In this document: positions 41,062-62,313 of the stretch, one piece after another | Position numbering within the stretch: the stretch's first letter is position 1 | Layout of the letters: each line of letters starts with the position of its first letter | Assembly (NCBI GenBank): GCA_030390025.1 | Contig: CM059432.1 | Span: forward strand, 39,682,001-39,746,000 | DNA: 64,000 bases | Origin: Squalus acanthias | Taxonomy: Eukaryota | Direction: 5' to 3' | Program-made: the position numbers and the translations under genes | Notes under the pieces: generated by a model | The model's input: only the letters and a program-made list of their open reading frames with translations | Told to the model about the DNA's origin: nothing | Databases searched by the model: none

Positions 41062-42201
41062 ATGGGGGGCTGTACTGGCAGTTGACCTCACCCTCCAGGA
41101 TCTACGGCGGAGTGAGTGGAGGCAGTGAGAAAGACTGCAACATATGCCCAGAGGGAGGAGGAGGCTCTCAACAGGAGGCCTTACCCTCCAAGGGTATTCT
41201 GAAAACACTTCTCCTACCTCCAATTAAATGAGGAGCAGTGTATTAGAAGGCTCCGCTTCACCAAGGAGATGGTCACAGAACTCTGCCACCTCCTGCAACC
41301 AGACCTCCAGCCTCAGACCAGGGCAACCACGGCTCTCATCGCCCTCAATTTCTTTGCCAGCGGATCCTTCCAGTGTGCAACAGGAGACATAGCTAAATCT
41401 CGCAGTTCGCCGTCCATCAGGGAGGCTCTCTACAGTAGGAGAAGGGAGTACATTTCCTTCCCCATCACCAGAGAGAAGCAGGACGGGCGTGCATGTGGCT
41501 TTGCCAGGATAGCGGGATTCCCCATAGTGCAGGGTGCCATTGACTGCACCCACATGGCTTTGCGGGCACCGCATAACAATCCTGACATCTTCCGTAACCG
41601 CAAAGGCTACCACTCACTTAATGTGCAGTTGGTGTGCGACCACAGACAGCGAATCCTCAATGCCAATGCCTGCTATCCTGGCAACAGCCACGATGCCTTC
41701 ATCCTGCGCCAGACCGGTGTGCCAGCACTCTTCCAGCCACCACGTCAAGCTCACGGCTGGCTGCTCGGAGACAAGGGCTATCCACTCTCCACCAGGCTCA
41801 TGACTCCCCTCGGCAACCCTAACACTCCTTCCCAGCACTCATATAATGAGAGCCATGCTGCCACCAGGAACATCATCGAGCAGAACATCAGCTTGCTGAA
41901 GCAACGGTTCCACTGCCTTGATCGCTCGGGAGGAGCCCTCCAGTACTCGGCTGAGTGGGTGTCCCATTTTGTCGAGGTCTGCTGCATGCTCCACAACTTG
42001 GCCATCATGAGGGCGCAGCCCTTGTCACCAGGGATTGCTGGACCACCTCAGGAGGAGGAAGAGGAGAGGAGGAGGAGGATGAGGAGGAAGACGAAGAGGA
42101 TGAGGAGGAGGAGGAACAGGAGCGAGGGAGGAGGCAGCCACTCAATCGGCCTTCCAGAAGGGCAGGTCCGTGACTGCCTCATCAGACTGCGGTTCGAATG
42201 A
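41062..42201 (+). pseudogene. Harbinger DDE transposase (core open 41269-42201, frameshifted N-terminus)
   Basis: [34 protein letters not shown]...LKQRFHCL and CCMLHN motifs. Confidence 0.88.
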
Positions 42202-47560: not shown

Positions 47561-47620
47561 AAAAAGGCTGTCTAGTCTCATATATGAAGAATGGCTACTC
47601 AGACATATAGCAGAGGGCTG

Positions 47621-49244
47621 TGTAAGGGTTTACGTGCGTGTCTCTCAGCCTGTGAGATTCACGCGGCTCTGTGCAGCCTGTATGTCAGTGCGGGTTTAGG
47701 CCTTGTTGCCTGTTCTGGTCTCCAGCCAGTCTGGGAGCACTAGACACACCTGTGAGTGGTTCGAATCACTCGCCCTTACGGTTCTAGACACTGGACTTAG
47801 ATGCGAGAGCAGTAATGGAGATGAAACTCATGTAGACTCGGGTGAATGGTACGAAATGGAAAATCTTTATTGCATAATATTTAAGATTACGAAATACATG
47901 TCACAAGCACAGATTAATGACAGTACAATCTTACACGCAGTTATGTAACTAATTCTAGGGAAACGAGGAACGAACGACACACCGTAAATGGGGGCACACA
48001 TTACAATTATCCTTAATACTTAAACCCTCCCCTATCAATATCTGTCCTAGCTAGATTCGTAGGATTCGAGACTCATGCTCACCACTCGTGATAACTCGGA
48101 GAAATTCCGAATAGCTGATCGGATGTTTTTCACCGCAGCACCCACGTGTCGATCAGGGGGTCTCCTGGCCCCACTTGTTTACTTGCTTCTGCTCCGGCTA
48201 GCAGGCTGGAACGTCTGTTGTTATGAAGATCTGTGTTTGTGGGTTTCACGTACCAGCCAAGATGGGTTTCACAGACCAGTCAATACTTCGAAAGAAGAGT
48301 CTTCCGGGGTCCGTTCTTTAAAGTTCAAAGAAGTCTTCCTGGCAAGGAAAAATGTCTATTCGACCTACAGGCGCGGTCGGGGCTTACTGACCGTGGCGAT
48401 AAGTATGGTCTTCGTCTCTTCTCATCTCTTCTCGGGCCTTTGGTTCCGATGCCGGTTACCAACACAGGTCTTCGTGACACGACACGAGGTAGATCCGAAC
48501 GGATCACAAAGTTCAACAGTCTTTTAAAAGAGACACCAGGCAAGCAGGAACAAGACGGCGAGTCAAGAACACAGGAGCAGCCACGAGGATGAAGAGTCAA
48601 TCGGATAAGAGAAAGATGGACGGTTTGGGGCTTGCAATTATAGTGCAAAAATCTTCCGTTTCCCGCCCAACCTTAATGTCTTTTCTTTTGTTTGGGTTTG
48701 GCGCTCAAATGTCTTGTATAGGTGATCTCCGTTTTTAATGGGTTTCGGGGCTACTCGTAAATGTCTGAGTACCTGTTAATATTTCTCCCATTGTTTAATC
48801 GGTCGGTGTTCTCCCTGGAGGGGTTTTGGGGCCTCCAAGTGTTTTCTGTAACTACCCGCTAACGGCTCTCTCATCGTAGAGTCGTTGGGATTTTACATAT
48901 TAATGTCTTTGGATGGGCCCTTGATTACTTGGTACAATAGCCTTTATTCGTACCCGGGAGACCGATTTCAGTATCTATGTGTATACTGCAAACCCATGAT
49001 GTCTCGTGTATTATCTTCAATGTGCTGAATCTTAATCGATCTTGCACAAATGTTTATTGGAACGCCATCTTGTCTGCCTGTCGAAAAGTCTAGAATGTTC
49101 CGCCACGAGGTGCGGCGGCCATTTTACAAGCTGCTTGTGTCCACTTTGAAACCTGACAGCATTCCGCTGAAATAAAAGCTGTTTGAACGAAACTCTGTGT
49201 TTTTCTCTTTATTAATAAAATCGCGATATATTGCGAATTCTACA
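47621..49244 (-). repeat. 3' LTR (1624 bp)
   Basis: TGTA...TACA ends. Minus-strand AATAAA at 47866-47871. Confidence 0.97.
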
Positions 49245-49692: not shown

Positions 49693-51975
49693 TTACACGG
49701 TGCTTTCATCGTGCACGCGCACGTAACGTTCTCGCCACTCACCCGTGTTTTCATGCTTGGTGAGGCGTTTGTCTCTTTTACAATGTACGACCAATAGGTA
49801 CACTACAATAAAAACTTGGCATATTACTAAAATGTGGGAGGCTATTCTGATCCATGAAGGCACTTCAATATTGGTGAACAGATTCCACCACGGTGGAATG
49901 ACTATGTCCAGAATGTCTGTCCCTATCTCGACAGTTTTCTGTTCTAATGTATAAAAATGTTTCTGTGACACCGTGACGGCTTTTAAAAGCTTGGTGAGGT
50001 GTTCAGGGAGAGGGGGAATGAGGTATCCGAAATGCGCGACGAATCGCTGCAAGTCGGTGAAATTCTCTTTTACTGTTAGATGAACAGTGGATGGTTCAGG
50101 GATTGGGACAATTCGCTGTTGTGCTACTTGAACTTCCGCCCTGGGTTTGAAACAGAAACTGCTGTCACTCACCGGACACCGGCTACGGTTTCCATGCTGG
50201 TAGTGTTGCGCTGCAGTGGTAACACAATATGTTCCACCCCCGATGTATGCTACCTGCGGAGGCACATGATCTTGTGCCATTGCCTCCATGGTGCAATTCA
50301 TGGACTTGGCGCCAGCCGTTCTGAACCCGCACTGTGGTGTTAAAAAGGCATTCAAGTGCTGGGGACACAGTATTATGTGTGCTCCCCTGCCACGACAACC
50401 AGAGAGATCGGTACCTGTCATCGTTTGCTCCCAGCGGATGACGTAAGGTGGAACCGCTGCATAGCGAATGTGGGCTCCCCCCTGAATGACACCAATGTTC
50501 TCTACCCGATACACCGGGGCGGGCTTTGCTGTGTCGCCCAAAACCGGCATACGTAAAACTATACCCATAATGGTATGGTTTGATCGTCCACAGGGACTGG
50601 GTATGCTTCTGAAGCTAGCCTGAGCTGGCACGGGCTTAATGCGTTCTGAAAAGGGTGGAGCGCCCGCAGGTGTTTGTTACTTATCCAGGACGGGACCAAA
50701 CCTTGTTTTAAATCTTCCAAATTACTGCGGCCCTCGCCCAGTAACCACGCCCCGTAAAGCACGCACACCTCGTTCTGCGCAGCTTGATCGGATGCATTCC
50801 GATCTTCCCTAATCAGGGCATTTACCGTCTTTGCATGTTTCTCTAACTCTGCTATAATTTCCTTTAAATGGAGAGTCATGGCTTGGTCCTCGTGTAAACC
50901 CGACCCTACCACTTTATTCTCATCTGTTAGAATGTCTTTTAATTGTGTCTTTAAACCATTAATCTGGGTCTGCAGCTCCACACTGTCTAGAGCGTTGACC
51001 ACAGATGTACCCGTGTTAAAAGCAGTATTAAAAGCAGTGAACGCGTCGTTCACTACACCCCTTCTTTGCCTCCCTACTTGATCCAAAACTTCATGTGGTG
51101 CGGTGTACAAACTTGTTTTATCAATTTCCGCGAAATCGAATTCGTAAAATTGTCTGAACATCTTGGTCAACAGGACCTGATACAACTGTTCTGTCTTTTT
51201 GGGGCACCACTCTGGTAACCGCACCTCGGTGAGATTTAAAATCACCGAGGCCACCGCGTAATGTACCCCCTGGAATAGTATCTGGTCTGTGGGGACCAGT
51301 ACCAAACCATTCCCGGGTCCCTTACTAGTTTTAGGGCACCCTTCCTCTTCAGCTAGAACCACCGGAATCGTGGGCGGGGCTTTGATCCCACCTCATCCCC
51401 TGTCCGTTATCCTGCCATTGATTAATGAAGAATATGGATATGCCTTTGGGGCAAGGGTACTTTGACCCCCACATGCATACATAAATTCCCTCATCCGGTT
51501 CCCACCATTTGTCCCAACAGACTCTCACATGTCCGTTTGTCCCCGTAATTGTCCGATGGGTATTATTACCCAGTCGTTCCCACTCGACCGAAGAGTTCCT
51601 CATAGTTTTGCTCAGCTTTCGCAGCCACCACCATCGGCTCAATGGGACATTCCCACTACAAGTCAAACAAATCCGTTTGCCGACGGTGACGCTGATCCTG
51701 GGTGCGATGATCCTTACTTTGGGGCACATTAAAGAAGTCTCTTGGTAGGCAAACCCCGATGTGCTAGAATACTCCGTCGAGTTCGTTCCCAGCCATCCTG
51801 GCCACCTTCCCTTGTGGAAATAGGTGGTGTTCTCCTCAGCCTCCCGTCTTCCGGTCTCATCCACCGCGATGGGGGCCGTGTCCCCGGAGCATCCAAACAC
51901 CACGACATCCTTGGTGCGGCCTCGATAGGCCAATCCACATCCGATTGCCGCGAGCAATACTAGAATTCGTTCCAT
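49693..51975 (-). pseudogene. env: env-like gene (about 760 codons, in three frames): signal peptide, Ig-like domain, furin site, F-like fusion subunit, TM anchor
   Basis: ATG at 51975 (aggATGG) begins MERILVLLAAIGCGLA. RQRR|GVVNDAFTAF is followed by a heptad repeat, a Cys-rich region and the TM segment IASHILVICQVFIVVYLLVV. Frame breaks occur near 51375 and 50590. Confidence 0.85.
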
Positions 51976-52278
51976 CCTTCCTTGGTTCCTGTGATCAGAT
52001 AGAATGAGGTAGCCAGCCTCGCAAGAGTCTCTGGCTTTTGTGAAGGGTGAGCGGGTCCCCTGACCTCGCCTCACGTAAACTTCAACGTTCGCTGAATAAA
52101 CTTTAACTAGACCTAATCTCTAAAGCTCCCATCATTTTACCGTTTTCTGTTAAAATTAAACTACAAACTTAACCTTATTTAAAACTACAAACTTATAACC
52201 TTATTTAAAACTATAAACTTGGAAACCTATCCTAAACTTATTACTGTACAGCGCCGCCCGTTCTCAGGGCGGCCCCCT

Positions 52279-55200
52279 TTAAATTCTGAGAAGGCTGCTG
52301 CGAGCTCTTCCCGACGGTGGGAGGGCTCTGACCTTTTCCTCTGATCTGCCGCAGCCTGTTGCTGCACTGACCCCTTCCTCTGATCTGCCGCAGCCTGTTG
52401 CTGCACTGACCCCTTCCTCTGATCTGCCGCAGCCTGTTGCTGCTGCGATGGGGCCGGGCTGTATCTGGGCTGCCTTAACCTTGAGTCTACGCCTTGGGAC
52501 AGTCTGGGGCCATACCCACATCTTCCTGGGCTGGGGTTCTCTACTTGACCTACGGGGAGTTGTCAGGGGCAGGGATCCCATGACCGACGGACCGGGTTCC
52601 GAGACTTCCATCGGGACGACCTGTGGTTCCACCACAGTCGCTGGCTCCGCCTCCGCTGACTCCGCCTCCCTAACCTCGGGACTTGCAGTTTGTGGCTCCG
52701 CCCTGCTCGGCCCAGCAGGCGGCCCTTCACTTGCGATCCCTGCCTCCCCCGAGGGCGGGACGTTCAAAGCGGGCGGCTCGGGCTCGGAGGTTCTCACCGT
52801 CACTCCCTGTGTTCCCACAGCAGCTGGCTCCGCCTCCCCTAGCTCCTCCCTCCTGGGTTCGGGACCTGCAGCTTGTGGCTCCGCCCTGTGCGGATCTCCA
52901 TCTGCAGTCCGTGTCCTCCCTATACCTAAAATGGGGACGCCCCTTACGTTCCGCAAAACCCACTCGCCTTCATCACTATCCTCATCTGACTCCCATCCCC
53001 ACAAAAATGCTTCATGATCTTCCAGGATGTCCCCTCCCCTGATGCAAGCTGCTTTGCCTGCCTGTTTGCCTTGTGGTCCTACCTGGGGCTGCGCTTCCCC
53101 ACTCGCGGGGTTTACCCCTGTGGTTTTCCCTTGCGCACCTGGCTTGTACAGTTTGCACTGGTTTACATGGAACCACTTAGTGCGCCGAGGTACCTTTACG
53201 GCGTATACCATGGGACTCGCCTTATCTACAATGTTGTAGGGTCCCATATACAGTGGTTCCAGACTCCCTACTCTGGCGTAGTTTCTGACCATGACCTGGT
53301 CTCCTACTTCCCACTCCCGCGTTTTGCGGGGTTCCAGCAACAGGCGATTGCCCTGATGCTGCCTTCCCATGTTCCCAGCCGCCTGCTCATAAACCTGCTT
53401 CAGGCGCTCCAAGAGGGTCTGGGCGAACTTGTCCCTGCTTATCTCTTGGAGCTGACCCTCAGTGAGCACCGGCGCTAGCACATGGGTGGGGGTTCGCATG
53501 AGCCTCCCAGTCATCACCTCGTGCGGGGAATACCCCGTACTTTTCGACTGACTGGCCCGGACCCCCATGAGGACTAAAGGCAGAACTTCCGCCCATTTTT
53601 GGGGCGAGTTCCTAGTCTCTTTCCTCAATTTCTCCTTCAGGGTCCGGTTCATGCGTTCAACAATCCCGGATGACTGGGGATTGTGTGCTACGTGCCACTT
53701 CCCTTCAATGCCCAAAAGCATGAGGGTGTTCTGCATCACCTGGCCGGTGAAATGACTCCCTTGGTCTGACTCCACAAAACGGGGGAGTCCCCACCGCGAG
53801 AACACTTCCCGGACCAAGATTTTTGCAGTACCCAGTGCCGTAGCTGTTCGACAGGGGAAGGCTTCCACCCACTTGGAGAACACATCCACCAAGACGAGGC
53901 AGTATTTATAGCCTCCCTGGGTGGTGGGCAGGGGCCCTATATAGTCGATCTGTATCGACTGCCATGGTCCCTCTACCCTTCTTACGTGTCCCATGGGCAC
54001 TTTCCTTTTCTGGGGGTCTGGGTTGTTTGCAGCGCACACAAGACAGTTTGCACAGAACTCGCGGACTTGTTCCCTGAGCCCTGGCCACCATCCCGCTTGC
54101 TCTACCCGTTGCCAGGTAACCTCGGGCCCGGGGTGCCCTGCCCCTGGTCCCTCGTGAGCCAACTGGAGGAATTCCCTCCTGTGCTGCTGCGGCACAACCC
54201 ACTGCTCCTCGCGGAACAGCATGCCTTCCTTAACTGAGAGGGTTGCCGTACTGTACGGACCCTCTACCTGCTTCCCCTCAGCAATGGTTTTTAGGACTGC
54301 TTTTAGGGCGGGATCCTGGGTTTGGACGGTCTTAAGGTCTAGGGGCAATGCTACCCTGGGGTTCCCGGGATTCCCGTCCCTGCCTTGGATCGCTGCCATG
54401 GGTCTGGTCCCATAGGGGTCCCAGAAAATGCCGTTGCGGGCACCTTCCCTGGCTAGCGCATCCGCCTGTTGGTTGCCCTCCCCACGGGGCTCTGTGGAGG
54501 AGTGAGCTTTCACCTTATGGATGAAAATCTCCCCTTCCTCCCCTGCTGCTGCTGCTAGGATCTTTTCCAGCAAGGGCTTCACCGTTAAAGGTCGCCCGTC
54601 CGCGGAGGTGTATCCACGGCGGGACCAAATGGCCAGGTATTCCGTACACGAATTGCATGTGAACATACTGTCCGAGCAAATCGTGTATGGGGTTGGGAAA
54701 ATGTCTGGGTGGGTAACAACGTACACCACAGCAGACAGCTCAGCCTGCTGCGCGCTCATGGTGCTAGGGAGCTTGATCGCCAGGGCAAGGTTTGCCGCAG
54801 GGTCATAAACTCCACACCCTGTGAGTCGTTCGCCAGCAGATACTGTGCTAGAACCATCAACATAAATCTCGCGCCCAGTGGGATGTATCCCGGCCCGCAA
54901 ACCTATGTTGACGTCCCACACCCCTTCCACCGAACATCGGTGGGCTGTACCGGGGTATACCAAATTGGCCGCAAGCCTGGGCTCGCAAAGACCTTTTACT
55001 CTAAGATCCATCTGGGAAAGAAGAAGGGTCCAGCGCGCAATACGCACGCCGCTTACGGTCCCATCTTTAATCCTCCCATCTAGAAGCATCTTAGTTGGTG
55101 TGTGATGGGTGAGGAGAGTGATGGGAGAGAGCCCTGTGAAGATCGCTGATCTTTTCACAGCCCAATGCGTGGCTAAAAGGTGCCTTTCGCAATTGGAGAA

Positions 55201-56817
55201 ACTTCTCTCCACATCCGTTAACACTCTGGACGAATAGACAACCGGCCTCAGCTTGCCGTGACGCTCTTGGAGCAGCACAGCGCTCAAGCTGTCCCCGCTG
55301 GCAGCTACCTCCAGGAAAAACTCCTTCCCCCCATCTATGGCCCCTAAAGCTGGCGCGGTCTGCAGATCCCTTTTTAACTTCTCGAAGGCTGCTTGGCAGC
55401 CCTCGTCCCAAGACCACTCCACTCCCTTATGGAGGAGTCGGAGGAGCGGCGCTGCTGTGGCCGCATAGTCTTCGATAAAATCCCTGCAGTAACCGGTCAG
55501 TCCCAAGAAGGACCTCACACCCCTTATGTTGTTGGGAATCGGTAACTCTTGCACCGACTCCCTCCTAGCCTTATCTATGGCTCTTTCCCCAGCGCGAATG
55601 GTCAGTCCCAGGAATTTTACTTCCTGCTGACCGATACGTGCTTTCTTAGAATTTATTTTAAAACCCTTTCTCGCTAGCAGCTCCAATAACTCGTCCAGCA
55701 GTGGTCCATGCTCCTCCCTTGAATCCGTAAATAGGAGCAAATCATCCACGTACTGCACTATCTGATTGGGCTGACTAAACTCCTTTAAACTTCCTGCCAT
55801 ACACTGATGGAAAATACTGGGGCTATTGTGGAAACCCTGTGGCAGACAGTTCCATGTGTACTGTTGTCCTTTGAAAGTAAAGGCAAACTTGTACTGGTCC
55901 TCTCGCCGCAGCGGGATAGACCAAAAACCGTTCGAGATATCCAGCACCGTGAACGTGGTCGCGGACGCTGGGATACTCCCTATTAGGTCAGCAACTGCTG
56001 CTACCGTGGGCGCGCAGGCGGGAATGTTACTGTTAAGGACTCTGTAGTCCACCGTGGCCCTCCACGAATTATCCGGCTTCCTAACCGGCCATAATGGGGA
56101 GTTCACGTGTGTGGCTATCGGCCTCAACACGCCCTGCTGCACCAAGGAGGACATTGCTGTCTCCATATCGGGTTCTGCTTCTTTGGGGAAGTTATACTGT
56201 TTTTGGGGCCGGGTCATGGGGTCCCCATCTACGCTGACTTCAAACCCGGTAACCCTCCCACAATCATGCTTGTGGGTTGCAAACGCATGCATATTATCTG
56301 ACACGTACGTTTGCATGTCCGTTGGGACATCTGCGACCATAAGCCCGAGGTCGTAGCCTCCGGATGGCTGCATGGTACACAGGACCCCCGTTTCTTCCTC
56401 CCCCGGAATCACTACTACTTCGCCTTTTTCACTCTTAGCCCCCCAGAGACAGTGATTTCTGAGGTCCACGAGGATCCCGTGCCCTGATAGGAGATCGGAC
56501 CCAAGGATACCTCTTCCACCCCCCTCCTGCCATTCCATCAGTATGCACTTCCACTTGAGGTGAAGTGCTCCCAAACGAATGGATAGCGGAAGGGAGAACG
56601 CGCCAGCCTGTTCTTTTCCCGTGAACCCCGTTAATGTGAATGGGACCTTGGTAGATAGCGGCGAGTCAAAAGGGCTATCTGTATGAATTATGGTGCAAGA
56701 AGCTCCCGTGTCCAACAAATAACTACCCTTCTGTTTCTCTACCTCCATCTCCACCAAAGGTCGCTTCCACGCATCATAGCTGAGCGGACACAGGTAGACG
56801 GGCTGCGCGGGCTCTAG
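52279..56817 (-). CDS. pol: pol polyprotein, uninterrupted: protease, RT, degenerate RNase H tether, RNase H, integrase, long C-terminal tail
   Basis: LLDTGA; LDISNGFW, LPQG, YVDD; EVAAS...ERHLLA...THH; IYVDGS...AQQAEL...SDS...KVKAH...GNQQAD; HHCC, IDYIGP, SDQGSHF, GIVERMNRTLK, GPY. Confidence 0.97.
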   Translation of the reverse strand, partial: LEPAQPVYLCPLSYDAWKRPLVEMEVEKQKGSYLLDTGASCTIIHTDSPFDSPLSTKVPFTLTGFTGKEQAGAFSLPLSIRLGALHLKWKCILMEWQEGGGRGILGSDLLSGHGILVDLRNHCLWGAKSEKGEVVVIPGEEETGVLCTMQPSGGYDLGLMVADVPTDMQTYVSDNMHAFATHKHDCGRVTGFEVSVDGDPMTRPQKQYNFPKEAEPDMETAMSSLVQQGVLRPIATHVNSPLWPVRKPDNSWRATVDYRVLNSNIPACAPTVAAVADLIGSIPASATTFTVLDISNGFWSIPLRREDQYKFAFTFKGQQYTWNCLPQGFHNSPSIFHQCMAGSLKEFSQPNQIVQYVDDLLLFTDSREEHGPLLDELLELLARKGFKINSKKARIGQQEVKFLGLTIRAGERAIDKARRESVQELPIPNNIRGVRSFLGLTGYCRDFIEDYAATAAPLLRLLHKGVEWSWDEGCQAAFEKLKRDLQTAPALGAIDGGKEFFLEVAASGDSLSAVLLQERHGKLRPVVYSSRVLTDVERSFSNCERHLLATHWAVKRSAIFTGLSPITLLTHHTPTKMLLDGRIKDGTVSGVRIARWTLLLSQMDLRVKGLCEPRLAANLVYPGTAHRCSVEGVWDVNIGLRAGIHPTGREIYVDGSSTVSAGERLTGCGVYDPAANLALAIKLPSTMSAQQAELSAVVYVVTHPDIFPTPYTICSDSMFTCNSCTEYLAIWSRRGYTSADGRPLTVKPLLEKILAAAAGEEGEIFIHKVKAHSSTEPRGEGNQQADALAREGARNGIFWDPYGTRPMAAIQGRDGNPGNPRVALPLDLKTVQTQDPALKAVLKTIAEGKQVEGPYSTATLSVKEGMLFREEQWVVPQQHRREFLQLAHEGPGAGHPGPEVTWQRVEQAGWWPGLREQVREFCANCLVCAANNPDPQKRKVPMGHVRRVEGPWQSIQIDYIGPLPTTQGGYKYCLVLVDVFSKWVEAFPCRTATALGTAKILVREVFSRWGLPRFVESDQGSHFTGQVMQNTLMLLGIEGKWHVAHNPQSSGIVERMNRTLKEKLRKETRNSPQKWAEVLPLVLMGVRASQSKSTGYSPHEVMTGRLMRTPTHVLAPVLTEGQLQEISRDKFAQTLLERLKQVYEQAAGNMGRQHQGNRLLLEPRKTREWEVGDQVMVRNYARVGSLEPLYMGPYNIVDKASPMVYAVKVPRRTKWFHVNQCKLYKPGAQGKTTGVNPASGEAQPQVGPQGKQAGKAACIRGGDILEDHEAFLWGWESDEDSDEGEWVLRNVRGVPILGIGRTRTADGDPHRAEPQAAGPEPRREELGEAEPAAVGTQGVTVRTSEPEPPALNVPPSGEAGIASEGPPAGPSRAEPQTASPEVREAESAEAEPATVVEPQVVPMEVSEPGPSVMGSLPLTTPRRSSREPQPRKMWVWPQTVPRRRLKVKAAQIQPGPIAAATGCGRSEEGVSAATGCGRSEEGVSAATGCGRSEEKVRALPPSGRARSSLLRI

Positions 56818-58533
56818 TCATTGGGTACTATTAGACGGTCCTGCGGCACCTACGGGGCCGGTAGCAACCGCCACCTTTCCATGTGCACTCATGAAGTTGC
56901 GCATGGCTCCCAACACTGATTCGAGTTCGTTGGAAGGGGTGGGTGCACTAGTTTCCCTAGCAGGGACAGGCGTCTGGGCTCGGGCTGCGGGAATTTTATC
57001 CCTGGAATCCTTCCAAGGGTTCCTGCAGTTCTTGCGCCAGTGCCCTGTCTTCCCACACCCGTAACAAGCATTACTTGCCTGCGGGGCGCGATTACCCTCC
57101 TGATGCCACTCCCTTTGATACGGGGCTGCGGGTCGTACCTCATGTACTTTTCCCTTAAGGGGACGTGTTCCCATACCCCTTATATTGCGATATCCTAACG
57201 TGAGTCGATTCAATACCGACTCTTCCGTAATGTTGGGGTCATTGGGATCAAACCATGCTTTTGCCTACTCTCTGATGGCTGGTAAACTGTTGGCTACTAT
57301 GCACCTAAGCCAATGATTTAAACCGGCGCCGTCCATATCGTCGCGCTCTAGCGTACCTAGACAGCTGCGCTGATATACTGGCCACAGCCTGTCGGCAAAA
57401 ACCTTCGGGGGTTCTCCCTCCATCTGCACTGTCTGTCCCACTCTAGCAAACGGACCTTCATCGTCCGCCCCCAACACTTCTAGGACCTCATTTTTCAATG
57501 CCTCATAAGTCTTGGTTCCCCTCTTGCTCTCGCCCGAGAGACACTGAAGGATTGAACTGCCTAACGAAAACAACAGCATTTTTGCTGTTTCCCCATCATC
57601 GCAGCCGTTAATGGCTGCGGTTTGCTCAACTTCTCTGAAATGTACGGAAGGGTCGTCTAACTCGGTCAGCTTCCGTACGTGATTTATCATAACTCTCAGC
57701 TGGTGTGAGCTGTGAGGCAACACAAGCTGGCCGAGGAGATCCCCTGGTTCCTCCCCACCGTTTCTGTTTGGGCCCCTTTTTATACCCGTAACTGGATACA
57801 ACGGTCCCTTTTCCACTTCTTTCTCAGTGGGCTCTTTCGTTTCTTCCACTACTTCCTCCCTTACCCAGGTTACCGAATAGCTGGGTGGCGCGGAGGGCGC
57901 AGTGGCTAATACTTCCTCTGCTTTACTTGGTGGGGATTTCTGAAACTCCTCTTTTACTAGCGGCTGGTGTGCTGACGGACTGATAAGGCACATCATGCCG
58001 TGCGCTTTGTTCACGGCCTTTTTGAGGTGTTCTATCTCTTTTTGGCAGGCGCTATGATCGGCCCCCTGAAATTTATCCTCAAGGGCCAGCTTATATGCCG
58101 CCCTAACCCCTGTTAAGCTTTCTTCCTGGGTTCTTATCTGGGCAGCTGGGCGGGCACATCGTTCCTTTAGTCTGCCCTCACTTAACTTTGCCTCAGTGAC
58201 CTGGCACTCGAGGTAATCTATCCTTGTTTTATGGTGACTGGTGATTTCCTGGCGTTCTTGGTGCAGCGCACTTAAATTCCTAATGAGCAATTCCCCTCCA
58301 GAGACCTTCTCATCCATTTCTCCCTCTAAATGACTGATTCGAGCTGTTAGCGCTGTAATGACCTGGTTTGAAATCTGGACCTGCCTTTTGTAACACATTA
58401 GCCAGACTGCTTTCTCGATTGTCTTTTTATGTTCCTTACTATCTGTCCACCTTTCGGCTGCCTCTAGTGGACTCTTATCCGCTAACAATTCACTTATCCA
58501 TTTCTTAGTTAGATTAACCTTTCCGAACACATA

Positions 58534-59287
58534 GGCCCAGAAATTGATCCGGCTGCGCGAGAGTACGCACAGTGTACACTCACGCAGCCAGACTTCAATT
58601 GCCGGTTTTCAGCATGCACTGCGCATGCACTGAAAACCGGCAATTGATCTTTCGAAAAGGGGGCGGGTCCTCAGTGCACCGCGTGCGCGCTACAGGCTGC
58701 GCGCACGCAGTGCACTTCATCGCTTGCGCACGCAGGTAAGTATTGAAGAATCTGGAAAAGAAAAAAGGAAGCGCAGGAGACTCTTTTAACCAGGTAAGTA
58801 CATAATTAAGTAGTATTTAGAATTTTTTTTTACAGGTAAATCTTTAGTAGCGACTTTAAAGACAGGTAAGTTTATTTTTATAACATTTTAAAAGATTTAA
58901 AATTTTTTCAAAAATTTATTTTTTTGTTTAAAAAGGTTAATTTATTTAATTACACTTATTTTAATTATGTGATGGGTTTTTTTTTTAATTTAATGGAGGT
59001 TTAGCTCTTCTTTTGGGGGCTTGTTGTATTCCTAGTTTTCACAGCAGTTCAATGGCCGCTGTGAATTCTATGAATGAGAGCTTGGTGTGCTGCCATTGGC
59101 TGTAACTCAGTCACGTGATCCCACAGTACGCTCGAACTAACTTCGCACTGTGGGATCACGATGCACTCGCAGCTGATGGCTGGAACATGAAGTTCCAGCG
59201 AGCTGGGACTGAAAAAGCCAACGCGCAGTGAGACATCGCGGGAAGGGCTTACCCTCGCACGAACCCTCACACTGCAATTTCTGGGCC
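58534..59287. mobile_element. 754-bp MITE inserted in gag codon 32
   Basis: Perfect 13-bp TIR GGCCCAGAAATTG and TSD ATA (58531-58533 and 59288-59290). Excision restores the gag frame. Confidence 0.92.
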
Positions 59288-59364
59288 ATAATCTGCTATC
59301 TTTTCCTGCATAACATTTCGTACAGTCACACCAAAGTCTAACACACTACCCTCTCGCTGCCAGT

Positions 59365-59382
59365 GTCCTGCCGCGGTCGCCA
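59365..59382 (-). other. Primer-binding site TGGCGACCGCGGCAGGAC, complementary to the tRNA-Arg(TCG) 3' end
   Basis: The + strand reads GTCCTGCCGCGGTCGCCA, the 3' 18 nt of vertebrate tRNA-Arg(TCG) as I recall it. It lies 5 nt from the LTR. Confidence 0.85.
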
Positions 59383-59387
59383 TTTTC

Positions 59388-61021
59388 TGTAAGGGTTTAC
59401 GTGCGTGTCTCTCAGCCTGTGAGATTCGCGTGGCTCTGTGCAGCCTGTATGTCAGTGCGGGTTTAGGCCTTGTTGCCTGTTCTGGTCTCCAGCCAGTCTG
59501 GGAGCACTAGACACACCTGTGAGTGGTTCGAATCACTCGCCCTTACGGTTCTAGACACTGGACTTAGATGCGAGAGCAGTAATGGAGATGAAACTCATGT
59601 AGACTCGGTTGAATGGTACGAAATGGAAAATCTTTATTGCATAATATTTAAGATTACGAAATACATGTCATAAGCACAGATTAATGACAGTACAATCTTA
59701 CACGCAGTTATGTAACTAATTCTAGGGAAACGGGGAACGAACGACACACCGTAAATGGGGGCACACATTACAATTATCCTTAATACTTAAACCCTCCCCT
59801 ATCAATATCTGTCCTAGCTAGATTCGTAGGATTCGAGACTCATGCTCACCACTCGTGATAACTCGGAGAAATTCCGAATAGCTGATCGGATGTTTTTCAC
59901 CGCAGCATCCACGTGTCGATCAGGGGGTCTCCTGGCCCCACTTGTTTACTTGCTTCTGCTCCGGCTAGCAGGCTGGAACGTCTGTTGTTATGAAGATCTG
60001 TATTTGTGGGTTTCACGTACCAGCCAAGATGGGTTTCACAGACCAGTCAATACTTTGAAAGAAGAGTCTTCCGGGGTCCGTTCTTTAAAGTTCAAAGAAG
60101 TCTTCCTGGCAAGGAAAAATGTCTATTCGACCTACAGGCGCGGTCGGGGCTTACTGACCGTGGCGATAAGTATGGTCTTCGTCTCTTCTCATCTCATCTC
60201 ATCTCTTCTCGGGCCTTTGGTTCCGATGCCGGTTACCAACACAGGTCTTCGTGACACGACACGAGGTAGATCCGAACGGATCACAAAGTTCAACAGTCTT
60301 TTAAAAGAGACACCAGGCAAGCAGGAACAAGACGGCGAGTCAAGAACACAGGAGCAGCCACGAGGATGAAGAGTCAATCGGATAAGAGAAAGATGGACGG
60401 TTTGGGGCTTGCAATTATAGTGCAAAAATCTTCCGTTTCACGCCCAACCTTAATGTCTTTTCTTTTGTTTGGGTTTGGCGCTCAAATGTCTTGTATAGGT
60501 GATCTCCGTTTTTAATGGGTTTCGGGGCTACTCGTAAATGTCTGAGTACCTGTTAATATTTCTCCCATTGTTTAATCGGTCGGTGTTCTCCCTGGAGGGG
60601 TTTTGGGGCCTCCAAGTGTTTTCTGTAACTACCCGCTAACGGCTCTCTCATCGTAGAGTCGTTGGGATTTTACATATTAATGTCTTTGGATGGGCCCTTG
60701 ATTACTTGGTACAATAGCCTTTATTCGTACCCGGGAGACCGATTTCAGTATCTATGTGTATACTGCAAACCCATGATGTCCCGTGTATTATCTTCAATGT
60801 GCTGAATCTTAATCGATCTTGCACAAATGTTTATTGGAACGCCATCTTGTCTGCCTGTCGAAAAGTCTAGAATGTTCCGCCACGAGGTGCGGCGGCCATT
60901 TTACAGGCTGCTTGTGTCCACTTTGAAACCTGACAGCATTCCGCTGAAATAAAAGCTGTTTGAACGAAACTCTGTGTTTTTCTCTTTATTAATAAAATCG
61001 CGATATATTGCGAATTCTACA
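59388..61021 (-). repeat. 5' LTR (1634 bp)
   Basis: Matches 47621-49244 except for about 11 substitutions (counted by eye) and two extra ATCTC units. Confidence 0.97.
60410..60450 (-). promoter_or_regulatory. Candidate LTR core promoter (GC box, ETS-like CGGAAG, TATAAT)
   Basis: The minus strand reads gggcg(t/g)gaaacggaagatttttgcactataattgc. The motif order is conserved in all three LTR copies. Confidence 0.5.
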
Positions 61022-62313
61022 GCTGCCAGCCACTATCATGAGAGAGGGGGTAGAAAGAAAATCATAAGGAAAATTGGAGGGAAAACACAAAACAAAATAA
61101 AGGAACCAAATTGAATCCCGAATCCAAAGTCACTGGGAATTTCCTTGGGTTTCTGCCGAACTTCCGCAAAAGTTACGGTGATGAAGCAGGAGAAACTCCA
61201 AGAAAATTCCCGGTAATTGTCTTTACGAACTTTGTGACTACTTGAATCTGGCCTGATTCACACTTTTGATTTGAGTTGGTCTGTGCCTGTAAAAAATAAA
61301 TGCAAAAAATGGACAACGGAGCCAAAAGTCCTGAAGGCCCGCTCCGCTGTTGGAAGTGTGGTAGAGCACGACTTCCGCCCACTGCTACTCTGGCAGGGAG
61401 CCCTCTAGGCTCGGAAAATTAAAGCATGTAATTTTTTTTGAATGCTCCAAAGAATAAAGGGGTATTAGTTACCTTTCTCTCTGGCAGTCTTGTGGCCTTT
61501 CTAAGGCCCGGTATGGGACCTAAATGTGTTCTCCGCAGACATAGGTCCTCCTGGGCATATTATGTGGCATACTGGGTAGGGTTCCTAGGATAGTCTGGGA
61601 AAGCCCTCAGAGAAACCTCCATAGCTGGCAGTGGACCTGTGCGGGGGCAAGGGGAATGGTTGAATAGATGAATTGCCTGCCCTTCCCTGACTGTAATTGG
61701 GGTCACAGGTACAATGAGCAGAAACCTTGTAGATCTAGGTTTCAACAGAATTCATACCCGCTCTCATGGGGAGATCAGTATAAGAACATAAGAGCATAAG
61801 AAATCGGAGCAGGAATAGGCCACTTGGCCCCTCGAGCCTGCTCCGCCATTCAATAAGATCATGGCTGATCTTGGGCTCAAAGCCACCTCCCTGCCCGCTC
61901 CCCACTCACATATTGCAGGTTTTATGAGAAAATGAGTTAGATGGGTTGAATTACACACTTTATCCATGCTTTGCATCCTCCCCCTCCTATCACCAAGAAG
62001 TTCAACCCGCAGAGGTCCATTTGTGCACCTGCACTGCCATTTTAAAATGCTGCTGTAATTATACCTATCATGGTGAATGTCTATGGCTACTTCTATCACT
62101 ATAATGCTTAAAGTGATGGGTTCGCATATTGTAGGTTTTATGAGAAAATGAGTTAGATGGGTTGAATTACACACTTTATCCTTACTTAGCTTTGTGATCT
62201 TTGTCCAACTTAAAATATGGAGGAAAGTCTAAATCATAATGCTCGATCACACTAAGGGATTTATAATGGATGCATTAAGAAATCGTACAGAAACGCTGTC
62301 AGTTAGAATTGTA

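Follow-up and report, generated by a model that had tools for sequence, protein, structure and literature searches.

Minus-strand positions 49693-51975 of the 64,000-nucleotide (nt) stretch of Squalus acanthias DNA analyzed here (the window) are the env gene of a 13.4-kb provirus, which is complete and young. The env copy in the window is broken. A natural sister copy, P0001, encodes an Env of 783 amino acids (aa) from the same ATG and was used unchanged for searches and folding. In our reading, this Env is a class I fusion glycoprotein that most likely carries an immunoglobulin (Ig)-like head on a core of the type of the paramyxovirus and pneumovirus fusion (F) proteins, with the head as a receptor-binding module, and it is encoded by a young endogenous retrovirus (ERV). 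We assign a probability of about 0.62 to this reading as a whole. A sequence-only reading of the same DNA had proposed a retroviral env pairing an Ig-like domain with an F-like fusogen, and all the features that it named were found where it had placed them, on the minus strand.

When the two ends of the provirus were compared by BLAST, its long terminal repeats (LTRs), each ~1.6 kb, gave an alignment of 1635 columns that contains 11 mismatches and a single gap of 10 nt. Their termini are TG...CA, and a 4-bp target duplication, CAGC, is present on both flanks (61022-61025 and 47617-47620). The gene content between the LTRs is gag, pro-pol and env only, with no gene for a separate attachment protein (HN/H/G). 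The coordinates of all parts are given in Table 1.

Table 1. Parts of the provirus and of its env gene (positions in the window; ORF, open reading frame; HRA and HRB, heptad repeats A and B; PR, protease; RT, reverse transcriptase; IN, integrase)
Feature	Position	Strand	Basis
5' LTR (TG...CA)	59388..61021	-	BLAST of the two ends, termini inspected
Primer-binding-site-like 18-mer, begins TGG, 5 nt past the 5' LTR	59365..59382	-	sequence
gag: capsid-like part, then CCHC zinc-knuckle part	56818..58608	-	ORFs; zf-CCHC E 4.1e-4
pro-pol: PR, RT, tether, RNase H, IN and tail	52279..56817	-	Pfam
env, broken here; 783 aa in intact sister copies	49693..51975	-	ORFs, sister alignment
Signal peptide, aa 1-16	51928..51975	-	sequence; modelled helix over residues 2-16
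Predicted N-terminal head, add-on to F: aa 17-197 of about 17-242	51385..51927	-	start of F alignment, start of distant-relative alignment
Putative Ig-like core of the head, aa 85-185: CLTC, W, DEGIYVC	51421..51723	-	signature, weak matches, model
74-nt deletion, frameshift, private to this copy	51384..51385	-	sister alignment; X1 and X4 contigs have 74 letters here
Predicted F2-like segment, aa ~243-330, furin site RQRR at its end	51060..51323	-	pLDDT 87-93; aligned to paramyxovirus F2
Predicted F1-like subunit: fusion peptide, long HRA helices, Cys-bearing beta domains I and II, HRB, membrane anchor, short tail	49696..51059	-	model, Foldseek and VIA matches to F, profile match to foamy gp130 547-753
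12-nt in-frame insertion (short duplication), fusion-peptide region	51027..51038, approximate	-	sister alignment
7-nt deletion, second frameshift, private to this copy	50592..50593	-	sister alignment; X4 contigs have 7 more letters
Transmembrane helix, aa ~730-757	49774..49857	-	hydrophobicity windows; model helix 730-765
3' LTR, purine-rich tract just before it	47621..49244	-	BLAST, sequence

The env gene and its family in the genome

The env gene runs from an ATG at 51975 to a stop codon at 49693-49695, which agrees with the extent given in the sequence-only reading. Its translation starts with the signal peptide MERILVLLAAIGCGLA, as had been noted. The predicted furin site, RQRR, lies exactly at 51060-51071, corresponding to residues 327-330, and the post-cleavage subunit, estimated beforehand at about 450 aa, comprises 453 aa in the intact sister and has one hydrophobic anchor near residues 730-757. 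The ectodomain of this subunit contains 10 Cys. No two Cys are adjacent anywhere in the intact sister Env, and therefore there is no CX6CC motif, again in agreement with what had been claimed. Gamma-type orthoretroviral Env proteins have CX6CC and an immunosuppressive-domain region in a transmembrane (TM) subunit of ~200 aa; neither this combination nor a TM-like subunit of this size was found here.

The window copy of env is dead. Its coding sequence is spread over three frames (51349-52119, 50559-51392 and 49693-50676), and these frame breaks had not been recorded earlier. Two deletions, of 74 and 7 nt, shift the frame, and contigs of public sequencing runs confirmed that both are private to this copy. 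Indels aside, the window env is 98.4% identical to the intact sister (37 mismatches in 2271 aligned bases). Ahead of the MERIL start, sister copies have a further 64 open codons in the env frame, with an additional ATG in frame among them, unlike the window copy, where a stop codon precedes the MERIL start (51976-52134).

When the genome (3.7 Gb in 3882 contigs) was searched with the head, at least 148 matches were obtained, a lower bound as 148 of 7176 candidates were scored. Besides the window's own match, 147 are 95-98% identical to the window copy over the head. According to a tally of the match table, the frame is open over at least 840 aa in 75 of the 148 scored matches. Since about half of the scored copies have an open env frame, this very young and abundant family may still be active in its host. 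The env gene belongs to a young, high-copy ERV of a cartilaginous fish.

To estimate selection, 32 loci were fetched, of which 18 were gap-free over codons 1-699; removal of one exact duplicate left 17 distinct ungapped copies, one of them with a stop codon. For codons 1-699 as a whole, the ratio of nonsynonymous to synonymous polymorphism (pN/pS) was 0.09; taken separately, the Ig-like part gave 0.13 and the F1-like part 0.08. Among the variants present in at least two copies, 59 were synonymous and 12 nonsynonymous, compared with 53 and 34, respectively, among singletons, at a site ratio of 1:3.3. Because of the low pN/pS and the excess of shared synonymous variants, we conclude that the whole env was under purifying selection while the family spread, a pattern more in keeping with repeated infection than with copying inside the genome.

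Low pN/pS and many copies with long open frames would also be expected of a domesticated host gene of the syncytin type. This explanation is very improbable given that the gene belongs to a complete provirus whose LTRs are nearly identical and whose flanks show a target duplication, that it is present in at least 148 copies, and that the window copy is broken.

Fold of the fusion part

The proposal that the post-cleavage part resembles paramyxovirus or pneumovirus F was borne out by an AlphaFold2 (AF2) model and by its comparison with known structures using Foldseek. The model was computed from P0001 and 40 aligned relatives and has a mean predicted local distance difference test score (pLDDT) of 61.6 and a predicted template modelling score (pTM) of 0.45. 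The pLDDT is 87-93 over residues 234-305 and 77-95 over residues 410-650. In the F1-like part, the model places helices at 333-373 and 384-444 and strands at 477-645, the latter at pLDDT 77-95. Foldseek of the P0001 model against the PDB gave 215 chains at E<=1e-3, and the top rows are all paramyxovirus or pneumovirus F proteins (1ZTM, E 6.6e-12; 3RKI, E 3.3e-10; 8TVE; 3MAW). These alignments begin at model residues 243-245, paired with F residue ~25-38, which is the start of mature F2. The nested domain I-II-III fold with HRA and HRB that characterizes F is present in the model, which supports an F-type fold of the fusion part.

Matches of the model in BFVD were to F-type glycoproteins of Mononegavirales and chu-like viruses, to baculovirus F and to paramyxovirus F0. 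The retroviral matches in BFVD were to the epsilonretrovirus Env proteins of walleye epidermal hyperplasia virus 1 (WEHV-1, Q9WHI8, E 8e-11) and walleye dermal sarcoma virus (WDSV, A4GTG3, E 1.1e-7), and to feline foamy virus gp130 (E 1.1e-4). Based on the first two, epsilonretrovirus Env may be F-type as well.

According to the model, residues from ~243 onward would form, in this order, an F2-like segment, the furin site, a fusion peptide, a long HRA, domains I and II, HRB, the anchor and a short tail. All of these, namely the short F2-like piece, a predicted furin-type site that immediately precedes the fusion peptide, HRA, domains I-II, HRB and a C-terminal anchor on an F1-like subunit (453 aa here), are shared with paramyxovirus and pneumovirus F (PF00523; structures as above). 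This env differs from them in having no PF00523 sequence match and a head of ~225 aa ahead of the F2 equivalent. It further differs in being retroviral, with no separate attachment protein, whereas paramyxovirus F requires one. Following furin cleavage and a trigger, the F-like subunit would most likely refold into a six-helix bundle and bring about membrane fusion.

Several results limit the evidence for an F-type core. PF00523 matched none of 19 core-bearing env proteins or pieces (two pieces from the window, P0001, and 10 + 6 relatives) at an E limit of 1, or of 10 for P0001. A PDB search with a profile of all 40 relatives gave no significant match, the best one being a stretch of HIV gp41 comprising the membrane-proximal external region and the transmembrane segment (E 0.17). 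The likeness to F is that of a predicted model (pTM 0.45, 40 sequences) and not of a solved structure. A PF00523 search of the whole genome, with a stricter first pass, gave no match, but its control gave none either, which makes this search uninformative. Other searches were negative as well. Single-sequence searches of the PDB with three window pieces and with P0001 yielded nothing significant, and the nearest cluster in a whole-protein Atlas search (score 0.84) was unnamed and from Chordata. Two word-indexed homologue searches returned 11 and 2 proteins, respectively, and provided no bridge to PF00523; an exhaustive phmmer search of 1.84 billion representatives returned 52 proteins at E<=1e-3. 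Both a PF00523 or pneumovirus F match and an F-like model had been anticipated for the downstream part: it does fold as paramyxovirus or pneumovirus F in the model, and the PF00523 match never appears.

The only solved protein reached by sequence was foamy virus gp130, using a family profile. A profile of 19 more distant relatives matched foamy gp130 in 8RM1 (E 1.3e-4) and 8RM0 (E 7e-4) over ~200 residues (gp130 547-753). In addition, hhalign against a foamy-like env ORF of the same genome gave E 2.4e-4 and 3.2e-4, at probabilities of just 43% and 39%. The scaffold would be the one termed 'class Ib', which is also used by foamy virus Env.

The N-terminal head

Residues 17-242 are predicted to lie outside the F scaffold. 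Since the F alignment begins at Env ~243-245 and pairs there with the N terminus of mature F, the Ig-bearing part appears to be a true add-on. Distant full-length relatives also align in phmmer from residue ~221-235 on only.

The Ig signature described in the sequence-only reading is present, with 51424-51723 translating to PKVRIIAPRISVTVGKRICLTCSGNVPLSRWWW...DEGIYVCMW..., and its spacing is as described: counted from the second Cys of CLTC, the Trp is 11 residues further on and the Cys of YVC 61. The Cys(B)-Trp(C)-Cys(F) triad at canonical spacing thus consists of C106, W117 and C167, the last within DEGIYVC (DxGxYxC). As a chance control, we used the pattern C-x(9-14)-W-x(35-60)-D-x-[GA]-x-Y-x-C without a stop codon. 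In the six frames of the window it occurs in env only, as two overlapping matches, one for each Cys of CLTC. It occurs in none of 200 random 64-kb sequences generated from the dinucleotide transition frequencies of the window. The motifs CLxC...W...[DE]xGIYxC are retained in every family member that reaches them, including relatives at 47-74% identity.

Fold recognition of the head points to an Ig-like domain at low scores. Pfam searches of five head sequences at E<=10 gave Ig_3 as the sole family, in three of the five, with a best E of 0.0067. PDB sequence matches of the head were an antibody variable light domain, JAM-A and the CRTAM IgV domain (E 0.1-0.4). For residues 80-190, the ten best named Atlas clusters all belong to the Ig superfamily (scores 0.89-0.91). 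The full-length AF2 model has seven strands at residues 93-184, which coincide with the B, C, E, F and G motifs.

Weighing against an Ig fold, the Ig_3 scores of 13.8, 14.2 and 17 bits compare with a cut-off of 30, so that no Pfam match of the Ig clan is above threshold, and every PDB sequence match has E>=0.1. The pLDDT over residues 93-184 is just ~40-65 in the full-length model. The head folded by itself reached a mean pLDDT of 40.6, and Foldseek of this head-alone model found no match at E<=1e-3. It is consequently the conserved signature and the consistently Ig-type weak sequence and language-model matches that uphold the proposed Ig fold, whereas no Pfam cut-off was reached, the AF2 models of the head are of low confidence and head-alone Foldseek was empty.

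We judge the chance that residues ~85-185 form an Ig-like beta-sandwich to be about three in four. The Cys/Trp/DxGxYxC pattern might instead lie within a beta-rich domain of another or a new fold. In addition to the subthreshold Pfam and PDB matches, the low confidence of both AF2 models and the empty head-alone Foldseek search, the 10 Cys of the head and its conserved CxxC, which are unusual in a plain Ig domain, would be in line with this alternative. We regard it as unlikely, though deserving to be taken seriously, given the failure of the pattern to arise in random sequence, the exclusive appearance of Ig_3 among Pfam families and of Ig domains among the top PDB and Atlas neighbors, and the seven modelled strands at the expected motif positions.

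The CxxC motif, C-L-[TVS]-C (51658-51669, minus strand), is invariant in five of five heads and would sit in strand B of an Ig-like core. CXXC is also typical of the surface subunit (SU) of gamma-type Env. Unlike in gamma-type Env, the CxxC of the head has no CX6CC partner in the protein.

The proposed Env would accordingly comprise a cleavable signal peptide followed by a head of ~225 residues, most likely with an Ig-like beta-sandwich at its core, ahead of the F-type part. Retroviruses have no separate attachment protein, and therefore the head most likely acts as a built-in receptor-binding module.

An Ig-like head could instead serve as a cap, glycan shield or immune decoy over the prefusion trimer without binding a receptor. 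Of the five N-glycan sites in the SU-like residues 1-330, four lie in the head, and three headless relatives keep the core, which may thus bind by itself; moreover, it has been argued that a newly acquired receptor-binding domain (RBD) may at first do no more than enhance attachment (preprint 10.1101/2024.03.17.585361). However, modules located N-terminally of or inserted into F-type scaffolds bind the receptor in foamy viruses and coronaviruses (PMC11468914), and the head is under purifying rather than diversifying selection (pN/pS 0.06-0.13). These head values are biased downward, a point against our reading, because the copies were chosen among the 30 top-ranking protein matches to the head and those with indels were then removed; ranking by head match leaves the estimate for the F1-like part unbiased. 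We consider a cap or decoy improbable. The immune-decoy role suggested in the sequence-only reading is not supported by any of the results.

The same reading had described the domain as a captured, host-like one. The exhaustive phmmer search of 1.84 billion representatives found no host donor of the head, so that host capture is not supported. A match of P0052 (5014 aa) to residues 21-89 was rejected as chance; P0052 is a bacterial repeat protein, and its score sums sixteen weak repeats.

Relatives and comparison with known envelopes

Named relatives of this env come from sharks and a skate (Pristiophorus, Rhinoraja, Scyliorhinus, Mustelus, Chiloscyllium, Heptranchias and Heterodontus) and from frogs (Pelodytes, Mantella, Xenopus and Lithobates). 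Across them, sequence comparison indicates that the F core is conserved and the head exchangeable, being swapped or absent. In P0038, P0047 and P0051, the signal peptide runs straight into the conserved 'ECP' start of the core, and the P0012/P0023 group has a Cys-rich head. Other frog and shark relatives have Ig-patterned heads of their own: P0034 matches V-set at E 0.045, P0013 is an 'Ig-like domain-containing protein' in UniRef, and all six PDB matches of the P0075 head at E<=10 are Ig-superfamily proteins (best E 0.11). Weighing against a single ancestry of the heads, hhalign among the heads of five subgroups (10 pairs) gave no significant similarity (best P 0.026), and a single origin of the Ig head is therefore not supported; the lack of a host donor in the exhaustive phmmer search weighs in the same direction.

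The same genome contains 83 matches to P0013 at 33-81% identity and 66 matches to P0012. Of the latter, 64 cover the core only (from residue ~115, 41-48% identity) and the remaining two are weaker (33%), beginning at residue ~61-63. Judged by these sequence matches, the genome holds many diverged lineages of this env superfamily. Public gene models P0007, P0008, P0011 and P0040 fuse env pieces to host-type domains (Niban-like, nine C2H2 zinc fingers, cadherin and F-box) and may be annotation chimeras or exapted fragments.

Among retroviral Env proteins, the foamy virus gp130 (8RM0/8RM1) is F-like by cryo-EM, and receptor-binding modules have been described as inserted at different sites across virus families in modular proteins termed 'class Ib' (PMC11468914). 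Foamy viruses and coronaviruses graft a binding module onto the same scaffold (PMC11468914). Foamy Env thus shares with the Env described here its retroviral origin, an F-type core and an extra module on the F scaffold, for which receptor binding is our inference here. The two differ in that this Env and its relatives have an ordinary signal peptide in place of the membrane-spanning leader peptide of foamy Env, and in that the add-on is N-terminal and wholly ahead of the F2 equivalent, whereas the foamy RBD is inserted between N-SU and C-SU. Moreover, unlike in foamy viruses, the gag of this element encodes a zinc knuckle, and its pol continues in the gag frame. The foamy Env family PF03408 did not match P0001 at E<=10. 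A separate, true foamy-like env family is present in the same genome, with PF03408 matches at 11 other places (best E 3.2e-22).

Independently folding, Ig-type N-terminal heads on retroviral Env, their exchange between lineages and one capture from a host gene have been described for gamma-type and alpha-like Env proteins (preprint 10.1101/2024.03.17.585361), among them RBD-C of murine and feline leukemia viruses (MLV and FeLV) and Env-Pb1, and a SIRP-like captured IgV RBD. Head exchange and, most likely, an N-terminal head of the Ig type are shared with the Env studied here. The described heads sit on Env proteins with CXXC/CX6CC and a short TM subunit and not on an F-type core, and no host donor was found here. 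The sequence-only reading knew of no precedent. F-like retroviral Env proteins and Ig-like gamma-type RBDs are each known; no example of the two combined in one Env turned up in the papers that could be searched, PMC12690878 and the preprint 10.64898/2026.05.06.723177 among them.

F-like Env is known from lokiretroviruses (PMC7947760, PMC9040795, PMC13524379), to which the sequence-only reading had pointed, and this element could be a lokiretrovirus whose known F-like Env extends to cartilaginous fish. Lokiretrovirus Env is a lower-vertebrate ERV Env that resembles Mononegavirales F with the same motif order as here: it has similarity to PF00523 (E 2.2e-7), a signal peptide, an RXKR site, a fusion peptide, a coiled coil and an anchor (PMC7947760). 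Frogs harbor relatives of our env, and four of six anuran genomes contain lokiretroviruses according to the supplement of PMC7947760. The pol product has a tether (degenerate RNase H) and RNase H, which are common to all retroviruses, and RT and IN look basal. However, in the survey table of PMC7947760 none of five chondrichthyan genomes was positive (screened/positive: Carcharhiniformes 1/0, Orectolobiformes 3/0, Chimaeriformes 1/0), and the hosts that this paper gives for lokiretroviruses do not include cartilaginous fish. Scyliorhinus torazame and Chiloscyllium punctatum were among the genomes screened there, and both carry relatives of this env (P0009 and P0013). Moreover, PF00523 matches none of the 19 core-bearing env proteins or pieces, the fold neighbors include epsilonretrovirus Env, and gag-pol is expressed by stop-codon readthrough as in class I viruses. 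An Ig-like domain is not mentioned in the main text of PMC7947760, in which 'immunoglobulin' occurs 0 times. Because that lineage's own screen was negative in all five chondrichthyan genomes, and with PF00523 never matching, membership in the lokiretroviruses is doubtful, and we hold this explanation to be rather unlikely.

In comparisons with solved structures, RT scored 218 bits against xenotropic MLV-related virus (XMRV)/MLV, 187 against foamy virus, 139 against Ty3 and 56 against HIV, and IN scored 119 bits against prototype foamy virus and 108 against Ty3. From these sequence comparisons, the pol lineage would seem to be basal or of a class I kind, more so than lokiretroviral or foamy. 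A class-I-related or basal position is likewise suggested by the CCHC knuckle of gag, by the stop codon between gag and pol in their common frame and by the resemblance of the model to epsilonretrovirus Env. Epsilonretrovirus Env (WEHV-1 and WDSV, predicted structures) matches this Env at the level of the predicted fold and has in common with it a class-I-type genome with gag-pol readthrough, and fish hosts. It differs in its length of 1159-1317 aa and in having no sequence similarity to this env in the exhaustive phmmer search. It has been described as uncharacterized or not modellable (PMC3758190; preprint 10.1101/2021.11.05.467493).

We tentatively propose, as a possibility that goes further than our reading of this Env, that sharks, skates and frogs carry a large and recently active radiation of retroviruses with an F-type ('class Ib') fusogen and interchangeable heads (Ig-like, Cys-rich or none), which are neither lokiretroviruses nor foamy viruses but class-I-related and possibly epsilon-like. 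If true, this would, together with the fold matches of epsilonretrovirus Env, suggest that the F-type envelope is widespread, and perhaps ancestral, among vertebrate retroviruses. Exchange of heads on an F-type core would then be a general way of gaining new receptors, and the Ig-like head may ultimately derive from a host gene. A head directly ahead of the F2 equivalent would be a third and simpler layout, found in a retrovirus, and the naturally occurring forms, which combine one conserved core with various heads or with no head at all, would form a series for studying how F-type fusogens are coupled to receptor binding. The env family described here would also fill a gap, in that pol, but no recognizable env, was reported for shark and frog ERVs (PMC5512871, PMC10699275, PMC4422223), and it would add a lineage to the debate over the origin of retroviral and Mononegavirales fusion proteins.

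The remaining parts of the provirus are of a retroviral type. The pol domains were identified by Pfam (RVT_1, E 1.5e-35; RT_RNaseH_2, 2.1e-21; RNase_H, 7e-20; Integrase_H2C2, 1.8e-17; rve, 6e-15). The pro-pol frame is the same as the gag frame, from which it is separated by a stop codon. Another in-frame stop codon lies inside gag at 57265-57267 (minus strand), between the capsid-like and zinc-knuckle parts, and contigs of other copies differ at this site. A tail of ~280 aa after integrase (52279-53100, minus strand) matched no Pfam family and contains three tandem 13-aa repeats. A spliced joint of leader and env was not seen in contigs of four runs, of which X1 and X4 are only guessed to be RNA and in which contig depth cannot rank genes. 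In the leader (58530-59286), contigs of three runs (X1, X4 and X9) join across a stretch of ~757 nt between the primer-binding site and gag, and the contigs, when their depth is summed, are far deeper over 58399-59387 than elsewhere; this pattern reflects a length variant or a repeat within the leader. Upstream of the provirus, on the plus strand, the window contains an ORF for a Harbinger-type transposase (41203-42201; DDE_Tnp_4, E 6.4e-35).

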